Virus record (IMG/VR): IMGVR_UViG_3300010353_000347 | Span: 52,295 to 116,294 of that record | Reading direction: 5' to 3' (one strand) | From: a virus | DNA length: 64,000 nt | Shown here: positions 10,140-16,901 of the stretch, one piece after another | Layout of the letters: each line of letters opens with the position of its first letter | Position numbering within the stretch: position 1 is the stretch's first letter | Notes under the pieces: generated by a model | Database searches by the model: none | Told to the model about the DNA's origin: nothing | The model's input: the letters and a program-made list of their open reading frames with translations, nothing else | Position numbers and translations under genes: made by a program

Positions 10140-10217
10140 TGGTGTTCCCTAGAGGACTCAAACCTCTACATCCGCCTCCGAAGGCGGCGGTACCCTATTC
10201 TGTTAGGTGAAGGGAAC
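10140..10217 (-). tRNA. Atypical tRNA-Arg(TCG)-like with enlarged anticodon arm
   Basis: Acceptor GTTCCCT/AGGGAAC, A73, CCA; CCGCC/GGCGG stem encloses GCCTTCGGA (9 nt); T-loop TTTGAGT. Confidence 0.6.
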
Positions 10218-10218
10218 A

Positions 10219-10917: not shown

Positions 10918-11661
10918 ATGAAACCGCTTTACACGAAAGAACAGTTTGAGTCTGCTAAGAGCCGAGACTTACTCCCCCTAGAATGTTACTATTGCGGGAA
11001 CCCATTTCTCAGGGGGAAGAACGACTTACTGACGATGGAGCGTGCCAAAGGTTTTTGTGGAACGTGGGCTCGGGCTGGTAAGTATTGCAGCCAGTCTTGT
11101 AACTCTAAGGCTAGCCACCTCCTCCGTGGTAACCGCCTTAAGGTTAGTACCGTGTGTAGTCTCTGCGGAGAAAAATTAGAGCGGTGCTGGTCACAGTACG
11201 CCCGGTCGAAGAATCACTTTTGTTCTCGCTCCTGCTCTGTAACCTACCGGAACACTCACAAGACGGTGGGAGTCCGAAGATCCAAGCTGGAAGTTTGGTT
11301 AGAGGAGCAACTGACTCTTCTTTACCCTGACCTGGAAATCCACTTCAACAGGAAAGACGCTATCAACTCTGAGCTTGACATTTACTTTCCGACTTTAAAA
11401 CTCGCTTTTGAGTTGAATGGCCCTCTTCATTTTGAGGCTGTTTATGGTCCCGAAAAGTTAGCACAGATTCAGAACAATGACGACAGGAAGTTCCAAGCCT
11501 GTGCTGAGAGAGGCATCTCCCTTTGCCTGATTGACGTTTCCGCAATGAAGCATTTCAAACCCGCTCGTGGAGAGTGGGTACTGTCTGAAATCAAAAGCAA
11601 GGTGGAGGTTTGGTGCCGAAGGCCGGACTCGAACCGGCACGCCAGAGGCACAAGTTCCTAA
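10918..11661 (+). CDS. Free-standing homing endonuclease-like protein (Zn-finger repeats + Vsr/DUF559-like PD-(D/E)xK domain)
   Basis: CYYCG, YCSQSC, CSLCG, FCSRSC; ELDIYFPTLKLAFELNGPLH; AGGAGG SD; antisense to tRNAs, AT-richer than flanks, 3-prime end overlaps tRNA-Leu. Confidence 0.75.
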   Translation: MKPLYTKEQFESAKSRDLLPLECYYCGNPFLRGKNDLLTMERAKGFCGTWARAGKYCSQSCNSKASHLLRGNRLKVSTVCSLCGEKLERCWSQYARSKNHFCSRSCSVTYRNTHKTVGVRRSKLEVWLEEQLTLLYPDLEIHFNRKDAINSELDIYFPTLKLAFELNGPLHFEAVYGPEKLAQIQNNDDRKFQACAERGISLCLIDVSAMKHFKPARGEWVLSEIKSKVEVWCRRPDSNRHARGTSS

Positions 11662-12159: not shown

Positions 12160-12345
12160 CTCAGTTCTCTAGTCAGCCCACAGTACGCTCTTCAAACCGC
12201 ATCACGGGTCTCACCCCGCCGGTTTCAGGGATTTCCGGTACTGTGGTAGGTGTGAGACGGAACCTCACAGTTTTAGCTAGGGGGCCTGTTGCAACAGGCG
12301 TTCCCATGAGTACCCACCGGCTGTGGGCTGACTGGAAAACTGAGA
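12160..12345. ncRNA. Candidate ~185-nt structured RNA
   Basis: 24-bp closing inverted repeat (2 mismatches) enclosing several hairpins; between tRNA-Pro and tRNA-Tyr. Confidence 0.5.
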
Positions 12346-12346
12346 A

Positions 12347-12424
12347 TGGTCGGGGCAGAGGGATTTGAACCCCCGGCCTCACGCTCCCAAAGCGTGCGCT
12401 CTAGCCAAGCTGAGCTATGCCCCG
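12347..12424 (-). tRNA. trnP: tRNA-Pro(TGG)
   Basis: Loop TTTGGGA, C1-G72, CCA. Confidence 0.93.
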
Positions 12425-12932
12425 AAACTGCGGGAACTCCGGCAGCGGCCTTGCACCGCTGTAGTGGCCTTAACCTGTAGAGGTAGGACTACTCGCGTCT
12501 AATCCAAGCCCGAAGTTATCCCCCGAATCCCCCTACCTGTTAGAGTGCGGGTGTCTCGTGTCTGCCCAAGCCCGAAGCGCACCCTACGAGCCGAAGCTCG
12601 CCTCCCTCAGTCCTTAGTTACGGTCTCCCAAACCGGGTTCCCTAGCCGGGGCTTAGTGGGGCTAACCGGCGCACCATGTCGGGATTCAACGGGTTTATTG
12701 GGTATTCACCCGTTCCTTATTCACCCCACCTACGTCCGTATCGTCTTTAGAGTCGCACGGAGGAACGCGACATTCCTACTGTACCCACTCGTCGGGCTGG
12801 TCGGTACTCCCGGTACACCCGTCCAACCTCTGCTCCACACCCTTCTGCCTGGAGCGTGACAGGCCCGTATAAAACCCCCTACGGAGCCGAGGGTCAACCT
12901 CTGTTAGCTAGTTGTCAAAGACCGTTTCAACA
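12425..12932 (-). ncRNA. Candidate ~500-nt multi-helix non-coding RNA
   Basis: No credible ORF; many hairpins incl. CGAGC-TTCG-GCTCG; own sigma70-type promoter immediately upstream, tRNA-Pro immediately downstream. Confidence 0.6.
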
Positions 12933-12938
12933 GTAGGG

Positions 12939-12967
12939 AGTGTAGCAAGTAACTTTTCCTTTGTCAA
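12939..12967 (-). promoter_or_regulatory. sigma70-type promoter
   Basis: TTGACA-N17-TACACT. Confidence 0.75.
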
Positions 12968-14681: not shown

Positions 14682-14703
14682 ATACGTTCGTTGCTTCTCG
14701 GAT

Positions 14704-14993
14704 GTTTCTAAGTGTGCCCGTCCACCAGCATTGTCCCCGACGGGATGGCGGCACCCGTTCGGGGGGAAGGTTTAGGCTCGCAAATGGCAGTCTGGTTCCT
14801 CCCCCGTGTACGACCCGCCAACGTAGGCCACCCGTGCCACCAGACAAACGAGTGCGCGAATTGGTTTGGTACACGCGACAGGGCCGCGTTCTGTTGCCTT
14901 GCGATTGGACGGAACCCTGGTAGCTAGTCAGGAGTTACACCGCTACGGCAGAAAGAGCGCCGTAACCTTGCCCGGACGGGCACGCTTAGAAAC
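14704..14993. ncRNA. Candidate ~290-nt structured RNA
   Basis: 20-bp closing inverted repeat with 1 mismatch; internal hairpins; no credible ORF. Confidence 0.55.
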
Positions 14994-15216: not shown

Positions 15217-15292
15217 TGGTAGCGCAGACAGGACTTGAACCTGCTAGGTCTAGCTTGAAAGGCTAGGTACGCGACCCTTTGTATTCTGCGCC
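15217..15292 (-). tRNA. trnE: tRNA-Glu(TTC)
   Basis: Loop CTTTCAA, CCA. Confidence 0.88.
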
Positions 15293-15367: not shown

Positions 15368-15369
15368 GT

Positions 15370-15440
15370 TGGCGGGCCTCCAAGGACTCGAACCTTGCGG
15401 TCAGGGTTTTGGAGACCCCGACGCTCCCTGAGCGAGACCC
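15370..15440 (-). tRNA. trnW: tRNA-Trp(CCA)
   Basis: Loop CTCCAAA, shortened D-arm, G73, CCA. Confidence 0.85.
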
Positions 15441-15446
15441 AAAGAT

Positions 15447-15607: not shown

Positions 15608-15800
15608 ATTCGTTTCCTTTGGTTAAATCTTCCTGCACAGGAGCGGCCACAGAACGGTCCAGCCTTACCCATGTTCACTTGATTATGCTTGACATGACTA
15701 CACAACTTTGATACTACCACCCCACACTCCGGGCAGGTCCGTCTATGTCAATGCAGAACAGGTAACCTTGTCTTGATTCGTAGGGTCCGTATCGTTTCAT
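15600..15800 (-). pseudogene. Internally deleted HNH homing endonuclease remnant
   Basis: MKRYGPYESRQGYLFCIDIDG joined out of frame to TCPECG...GKAGPFCGRSCAGRFN; these resemble N- and C-terminal ends of phage HNH proteins, no HNH core present. Confidence 0.55.
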
Positions 15801-16193
15801 GTCTACCACTTCCAGCCATGCGGGCGGAGGAAAAATGAGGTAGGGGGCGGATCAACCCGCTGCTCTCTCCCTTACGAGGAGGAGTGAGCGGTATGGCTAG
15901 TACCTCTCTGGAGGATTGTAGGGGGGCCAACCCCATTTTACCTCCCAGCTTCCCGAGCCTCACTTGGCGGTGGGAGTTCCCGCCTTGGCCAGAAACCGCC
16001 GGTCTCCACTTTGCCGACAGTCCAGTACGGGGTTTCGCGCAGATGCCCTACTTTGGCGACTGGCCGCTCTATTTTTTTCTCCCCTCTCTGATTGCCCCGC
16101 TTTCCGGGAGGGTGAGAGTCCTGACCGCTAGCTGTCAGGGCCGGTTATACATCGTACCAGGAACACGCGCATCGCTGCCTCCTGTCTTGTAGA

Positions 16194-16534: not shown

Positions 16535-16739
16535 TTGACCTCTTTTCCCAACACAGAGTTGCGAGATTCGCGCCCGCATTCAGGCCCAGCCGTCGCTGAG
16601 GGTGTGCGGATCTTCGGATTTAGTTCGCTTGCGGTCAGCGTAGCTGTTGGTTCCCCCGTCGGGGACAGCTACCTGGATCGGCAGCGCATCTCTTTCTCGC
16701 TCTCCATGTACGGCCCTCTGTGCTGGGAAAAGAAGTCAA
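16535..16739 (-). ncRNA. Candidate ~205-nt structured RNA
   Basis: ~24-bp closing inverted repeat, inner GCGAGA/TCTCGC helix, GTAGCTGT/ACAGCTAC hairpin; between tRNA-Asp and tRNA-Val. Confidence 0.5.
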
Positions 16740-16818: not shown

Positions 16819-16872
16819 GCGAGAAACTTTCCACTTCCGAGTTGTCAAGGAACCCTTCCTGCGACGATGGGA

Positions 16873-16901
16873 ACTCTAACACGGCATTACTGCTATGTCA
16901 A
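16873..16901 (-). promoter_or_regulatory. sigma70-type promoter at head of tRNA array
   Basis: TTGACA-N17-TAGAGT ~55 nt upstream of tRNA-Asp. Confidence 0.7.

Follow-up and report, generated by a model that had tools for sequence, protein, structure and literature searches.

RNA C and RNA D of bacteriophage T4 (the species 1 and species 2 RNAs) are stable orphan RNAs of 120–140 nt that are co-transcribed in the phage tRNA cluster and freed by tRNA processing. The larger orphan RNAs GOLLD and ROOL assemble into cages by way of kissing loops and are located near phage tRNA islands, and the abundance of ROOL can equal that of 16S rRNA (PMC12286853). Few unrelated examples of such large RNAs in phage tRNA islands are available. 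In rRNA operons, Nus antitermination complexes nucleate on boxA (PMC8632103). A sequence-only reading of the locus described here had invoked the occurrence of GOLLD and ROOL in phage tRNA clusters, in agreement with the published setting of both (PMC12286853).

The window, the whole stretch of 64,000 nt that was analyzed, is part of a 132-kb virus record that contains tail sheath and baseplate genes (a sludge myophage). Nearly identical DNA was found in activated sludge, anaerobic digester, and wastewater runs from 11 studies. The element lies on the minus strand, flanked by a 65-codon gene and tRNA-Pro, in an array of 23 tRNAs, and the best reading is that of a non-coding, probably structured RNA of the phage tRNA array. 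Its features, together with those of the strain lineage L285, in which the element is followed by additional DNA, are as follows.

12939–12967, minus strand: sigma70-type promoter with an extended −10 TG, matching 10 of 12 consensus positions (−35 box perfect, −10 box 4 of 6).
12911–12923, minus strand: putative boxA-like antitermination site (NusB–NusE type), about 15 nt past the −10 box.
12432–12905, minus strand: candidate non-coding RNA of about 470 nt, with a predicted 5′ end and a 3′ end placed from two landmarks, the closing helix and the point (12433) at which homology with L285 ends.
12644–12905, minus strand: 5′ domain of local hairpins and possible pseudoknots; z = −0.32, and an ensemble-distance test gives it no support.
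12803–12817, minus strand: short hairpin; in variants (linked T12817G and G12810A), the loop remains GNRA-compatible and the stem is longer by one pair, in a register picked after the variants were seen.
12792–12800, minus strand: alternative site at which the repeat might dock, through 9 bp and one bulge; its 10-mer is found again in a hairpin loop of the L285 extension.
12735–12771, minus strand: candidate H-type pseudoknot, consisting of hairpin 12771–12752, the loop of which (12761–12757) can pair with 12739–12735.
12688–12714, minus strand: 7-bp hairpin with a 13-nt loop, invariant across all strains.
12644–12671, minus strand: hairpin with an 8-nt complement (12656–12649) of the repeat in its loop; C12671A adds an A–U pair to the stem.
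12432–12642, minus strand: 3′ multibranch domain of about 210 nt, closed by the helix of 12642–12633 with 12442–12432.
12586–12601, minus strand: UUCG tetraloop hairpin, invariant.
12554–12577, minus strand: repeat copy 1, with an exact 12-nt core at 12566–12577 and similarity to about 24 nt (p = 0.016).
12491–12515, minus strand: repeat copy 2, core 12504–12515, running into a GNRA-capped hairpin (12505–12486) with a U·G to C–G variant at 12502.
12443–12461, minus strand: T-arm-like hairpin (loop of 7 nt) that directly adjoins the closing helix.
12425–12434, minus strand: junction resembling a deletion scar relative to L285; a 9-mer recurs 39 nt into the L285 extension.
12347–12424, minus strand: tRNA-Pro(UGG), whose 5′ end at 12424 is the boundary of the element region, where RNase P cleavage would release the element.
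L285 8176–8536, plus strand: 361-nt ORF-poor extension between the element and tRNA-Pro, with a hairpin loop that has two tandem 6-mers complementary to the repeat.

The promoter belongs to a phage-wide class with 19 copies in the genome, and its hexamers vary among strains (C12942G and C12945G in the L285 lineage). There is no terminator-like site on the minus strand between it and tRNA-Pro, so the promoter would also serve tRNA-Pro and the downstream tRNAs. The sequence-only reading was right that a promoter with a perfect −35 box is present and that the region stops at the 5′ end of tRNA-Pro (12424), but a promoter that is imperfect at −10, has so many copies, and is shared with downstream tRNAs is neither perfect nor the element's own. 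As in rrn operons, a boxA-like site (12923–12911) that resembles the consensus comes soon after the transcription start. The promoter at 16901 is followed at an equal distance by a second copy (16841–16853), and sense-strand occurrences of the motif are also seen in the tRNA arrays of related phages; the count of the motif in the window is circular, since the search pattern was built from these very sites. By analogy with rRNA operons, the site may nucleate antitermination here too. The first 25 nt or so are probably a boxA-like leader outside the folded RNA, and from the position of the boxA-like site, the folded part probably begins near 12905.

The seven helices of the sequence-only reading are present as complementary strings on the minus strand, but they are no more than chance gives. 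The MFE of the whole element has z = 0.01, none of its 120-nt windows falls below z = −0.9, and perfect helices of at least 5 bp number 99, compared with 107 in shuffles. The 12-nt direct repeat already noted in that reading does stand out mildly against shuffles on the minus strand (p = 0.016), as do C-closed UUCG or GNRA loop strings (5 vs. 1.95 in shuffles, p = 0.04), and the UUCG tetraloop that it had reported is the one in hairpin 12586–12601. Among the controls, L. salivarius ROOL has z = −1.09 and a phage tmRNA has z = −0.72; since these true RNAs also score weakly, a flat z-score is compatible with a pseudoknotted RNA. One of the proposed helices, 12538–12532 with 12487–12481, is probably in the wrong register because it overlaps the hairpin supported by the U·G to C–G variant.

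The 3′ domain has an identical MFE topology in three alleles, with z = −1.5 in L285 and −2.2 in strain L139. The loop of hairpin 12443–12461 in this domain can be read as a T-loop, and a 16-nt stretch of the element may resemble 16S rRNA. The pair 12762/12734 that flanks the candidate pseudoknot in the 5′ domain is C·C, G·G, or G–C, depending on the strain. The similarity of the two repeat copies reaches about 24 nt in the commonest alleles, and each copy can pair with either 5′-domain site, 12656–12649 or 12800–12792, a two-site complementarity that is not significant (p = 0.08). Such repeat–loop pairing, if formed, would recall the kissing-loop contacts of the ROOL and GOLLD cages (PMC12286853).

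The comparison strains were found by a look-up of flanking proteins, and their elements are 96–99% identical. All strain lineages fetched carry the element, which diverges by 0.8–4.2%, while the two genes just upstream diverge by up to 12–13%. Because some neighboring genes are as conserved as the element (1–2.5% variable sites) and the genomes are mosaic, this low divergence is weak evidence of selection. No helix is broken by any of the 16 substitutions. The expected number of breaks is 2.2 with the helices of the sequence-only reading (p = 0.086), 3.4 (p = 0.017) under a model made without recourse to the variants, and 4.5 (p = 0.004) under one that is partly post hoc; these p-values are optimistic, since the variants are few and linked on haplotypes. 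An ensemble-based test of the variants is significant in one of six measures. In L139, an inserted base and a C>T substitution turn the bulged helix 12642–12633/12442–12432 into 11 contiguous pairs, and other variants retain a GNRA-type loop, extend stems, or convert U·G to C–G. No pair is changed on both sides among these strains, all of which are 96–99% identical. The strain variation is compatible with the helices; the fold is weakly supported by the sequences, with only near-identical strains as carriers.

L285 is a common sister lineage, represented on about 20 contigs, and its homology with the window stops at 12433, the end of the closing helix. In L285–L287, 361 extra ORF-poor bases, for which neither Rfam nor BLAST gave a match, precede a different tRNA-Pro allele; swapped tRNA alleles are seen between strains in other cases as well, e.g., tRNA-Gly. 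The last nine bases of the window form recur inside the L285 extension, as they did in 10 of 20 000 shuffles (p about 5e-4), and from this recurrence the window form is probably a deletion derivative of the long L285 form. The element could then be either a self-contained module that has lost its neighbor or the 5′ segment of a longer RNA (about 850 nt). Paralogy or pairing of the element with the extension was considered and rejected, as the two do not align and their complementarity is below the shuffle mean; that they neither align nor pair above chance favors separate modules.

No distant homologue of the element was found in related phages, IMG/VR, GTDB genomes, or phage and plasmid collections. 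Blastn of phages and plasmids and scans of GTDB genomes gave no homologue, the matches in IMG/VR motif scans were those of chance only, and the inspected matches in a metagenome motif scan were coding-type repeats. A covariance model of the 3′ domain found no homologue in 37 sources and 5 records, nor was there one at the loci of phages with baseplate or sheath relatives at 33–71% identity. In the closest relative (71% baseplate identity), the tRNAs come in the same order, but the contigs end before the equivalent site. Between two tRNA-Arg genes, this relative has a 310-nt purine-rich spacer with short repeats (L281 567–878, plus strand), which is unfolded by energy (z about +0.5). In a relative with 61% baseplate identity, the layout is similar and the cargo is different: a promoter, a pistol ribozyme, a 300-nt spacer, and tRNA-Ile. 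The pistol ribozyme (L313 1004–1076, plus strand), which immediately follows the promoter in the tRNA array of a related phage, scores 47 bits, above gathering; the 300-nt spacer that follows it is ORF-free, and further folded spacers are located at 1455–1800 and 1960–2440. The tRNA array of a distant relative contains, behind a boxA-like site, a tmRNA with the tag AKFQPLALAA (L154 13763–14119, plus strand).

Rfam 15 gave nothing at E ≤ 10 for either the window allele or the longer L285 allele. The check proposed with the sequence-only reading, a search of the genome with GOLLD, ROOL, RNase P, tmRNA, and group I models, was negative at the element and assigns it to no known family. The ROOL model (RF03087, threshold 99.1 bits) gave no match at E ≤ 10, while it detects the known carrier pMP118, the positive control, at 130.4 bits. 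The conserved 3′ domain of the GOLLD model (RF02032, gathering 150 bits), a model run without a positive control, was not matched. The tmRNA model (RF00023) matches tRNAs only, and the element has no CCA, G3·U70, or tag frame. Neither the P4 consensus nor a model match for RNase P RNA type A (RF00010) was found, and neither was the P3–P7 core of a group I intron (RF00028) with R and S elements, a terminal G, and flanking exons. The Rfam 15 models of small self-cleaving ribozymes and manA gave none at E ≤ 10, and a pistol ribozyme was detected in a relative. Hammerhead, D5, P4, SRP, and group I S motifs are absent from the element. Several specific candidates were also rejected: a tRNA split by a group I intron, as ligation yields no valid anticodon arm; a group II domain 5 at 12673–12644, for its wrong spacing; HDV-like, twister, pistol, and hammerhead cores; and a Csr/Rsm-type sponge, as GGA is about as frequent, by hand count, as composition predicts. 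The element is not GOLLD or ROOL and is like them in setting only. The sequence-only reading had proposed a divergent member of these classes or a new class, and what stands of this is a non-coding, probably structured RNA with no Rfam match. Membership in GOLLD or ROOL does not, as neither model scores, and neither does an ornate new class, since homologues are limited to near-identical strains, compensatory changes on both sides of a pair are lacking, and nothing points to high abundance.

The array contains other RNA candidates. A 185-nt RNA at 12160–12344 (minus strand) has a 24-bp closing helix, z = −7, and no Rfam match; its interior is 17% diverged in L285 with the closing helix kept, and it is better supported than the element. 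Spacers at 14700–14993 and 16540–16738 (minus strand) have long closing helices, with z = −4.1 and −6.0, respectively, and no Rfam match. An ORF-poor spacer of about 590 nt at 15608–16193 (minus strand) has several hairpins, and its 15884–16068 part folds at chance level. An HNH-like endonuclease gene at 10918–11661 lies on the opposite (plus) strand within the array; it is absent from L139 and L290, and L285 has other HNH genes elsewhere in the array. ARAGORN missed tRNA-like genes at 15220–15292, 15369–15445, and 10144–10218 (minus strand), of which Rfam scores 15220–15292, and tRNA-Glu and tRNA-Arg(CCG) are called in the matching parts of the L285 array.

Only contigs are informative for expression, and contigs cannot show absence. 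In run X19 (contigs; RNA by guess), the neighboring 185-nt RNA has a depth of 87, about 20-fold above background; of the element there is only a 5′ piece, which extends into upstream DNA and has a depth of 5, like other background pieces (4–6). Since ROOL can match 16S rRNA in abundance, this depth counts mildly against a ROOL-like abundance of the element. Run X20 (RNA) contributes a single piece of 151 nt, with the promoter in it and a depth of 2, and run X24 has next to no reads, so neither is evidence of expression.

We consider it somewhat better than an even bet that the element is an orphan, lineage-restricted structured non-coding RNA freed from a phage tRNA transcript with a boxA leader. 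Host RNA polymerase would start at the 12967–12939 promoter, be joined at the boxA-like site by Nus antitermination factors, in the manner of rRNA operons, and transcribe through the element into tRNA-Pro and the remaining array. Cleavage at the tRNA 5′ end, presumably by RNase P, would then yield an RNA of about 470–500 nt, whose 3′ domain (210 nt) is compact and whose 5′ domain is looser and probably pseudoknotted. Its most likely working mode would be that of a protein-independent scaffold of the GOLLD/ROOL type, in which the two repeat copies may pair with the complementary 5′-domain loops, either in cis or between molecules. A bolder version, to which we give little weight, is that the element founds a new family, 470 nt or, in the L285 form, about 850 nt long, that self-assembles via the duplicated 12–24 nt motif and the complementary loops, and would be a third, sequence-independent cage or scaffold RNA of phage tRNA islands with natural long and short forms.

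A simpler proposal is that the element is a mere long 5′ leader of the tRNA operon, a spacer from the promoter and boxA to the first tRNA with local hairpins, which is degraded after tRNA maturation. The zero z-score and chance-level helix counts, the general phage promoter type with no terminator before tRNA-Pro, the missing homologues, and the missing abundance signal where the neighboring RNA shows one are all what such a leader predicts. However, 470 nt far exceeds what boxA is generally known to need, and at 16901, where a boxA-like site also follows the promoter, only some 55 nt separate the −10 box from tRNA-Asp. Furthermore, the variants avoid helices, and an indel repairs the pairing of a long-range helix (span about 200 nt). 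The three other strongly folded spacers (z of −4 to −7) show that this phage does use the array to carry RNAs. We regard the leader proposal as unlikely but deserving of serious attention. Truncation is a lesser prospect, and we doubt it: the window would hold a cut-down RNA of about 850 nt (element plus extension), or the first of two tandem modules, the second having been deleted. The 361 further bases before a different tRNA-Pro allele in L285–L287 and the recurrence of the last 9 nt in the extension suggest this, and five of those nucleotides have a pairing partner only in L285; in addition, the 5′-domain 10-mer recurs in an extension loop, and 850 nt is the size of GOLLD (PMC12286853). 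Nevertheless, the low complementarity and the lack of alignment between the two parts speak against a single RNA, the short form is present in 12 of 15 junction-spanning loci, in several alleles, and so is viable, and the closing helix stops at the junction, as expected of a self-contained module. As to structure, truncation is compatible with the orphan RNA that we prefer.

That the element belongs, in highly diverged form, to a known catalytic or housekeeping class (tmRNA, group I or II intron, RNase P, or self-cleaving ribozyme) is largely refuted, and we think it very improbable. In its favor, the T-arm-like hairpin is contiguous with the terminal helix, in the fashion of tmRNA, and two relatives encode such RNAs, a tmRNA within the array in one case and, immediately after the equivalent promoter, a pistol ribozyme in the other. 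However, no model scores even at E = 10, the CCA end and the G3·U70 pair are lacking, and none of the hammerhead, D5, P4, SRP, or group I S motifs is there. The least probable proposal, with almost nothing left to it, is a small protein, encoded by a 104-aa frame on the plus strand or a 55-aa frame on the minus strand. The indels seen, a net −3 and a +1/−1 pair, would suit a coding sequence. However, the 104-aa frame is broken in L139, the substitutions have no third-position bias, neither frame is ever called by gene callers, and both are without a Pfam match and absent from a collection of 15 billion proteins. Both candidate ORFs are not genes, and no ORF is conserved, as expected from the earlier statement that the segment lacks a credible ORF.

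The orphan, structured RNA that we prefer is a candidate for probing and not a result, with a family depth of nil at present. If it is real, its natural long and short alleles and the three other strongly folded orphan RNAs in the same array offer a ready comparison for tests of folding and assembly. How does it compare with known systems? RNA C and RNA D of T4 have a similar layout, but the element is much longer, and they are likened to it by description alone. The tmRNA (RF00023) shares with the element a 3′ T-arm-like hairpin beside a terminal helix and possible pseudoknots, and occurs in a related phage's array, whereas the element has no model match (tRNAs aside), CCA, G3·U70, or tag frame. 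The boxA-containing leader of rRNA operons (PMC8632103) likewise has a strong sigma70 promoter, a boxA-like site within about 20 nt, and structured RNAs after it, whereas the phage cargo is tRNAs and orphan RNAs, and NusB binding here is putative. The universally conserved 3′ region of GOLLD (RF02032; PMC12286853) is not matched by the element, but the phage tRNA island setting and the distinct 5′ and 3′ domains are alike, and the long L285 form is GOLLD-sized. ROOL (RF03087; PMC5737381, PMC12286853) differs in that its model is silent on the element, which shows no covariation, multi-phylum spread, or high abundance. Like ROOL, which averages 581 nt, the element is an orphan RNA of several hundred nucleotides beside phage tRNAs in which pseudoknots or kissing loops are possible, and the MFE z-score of L. 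salivarius ROOL (−1.09) is weak as well.
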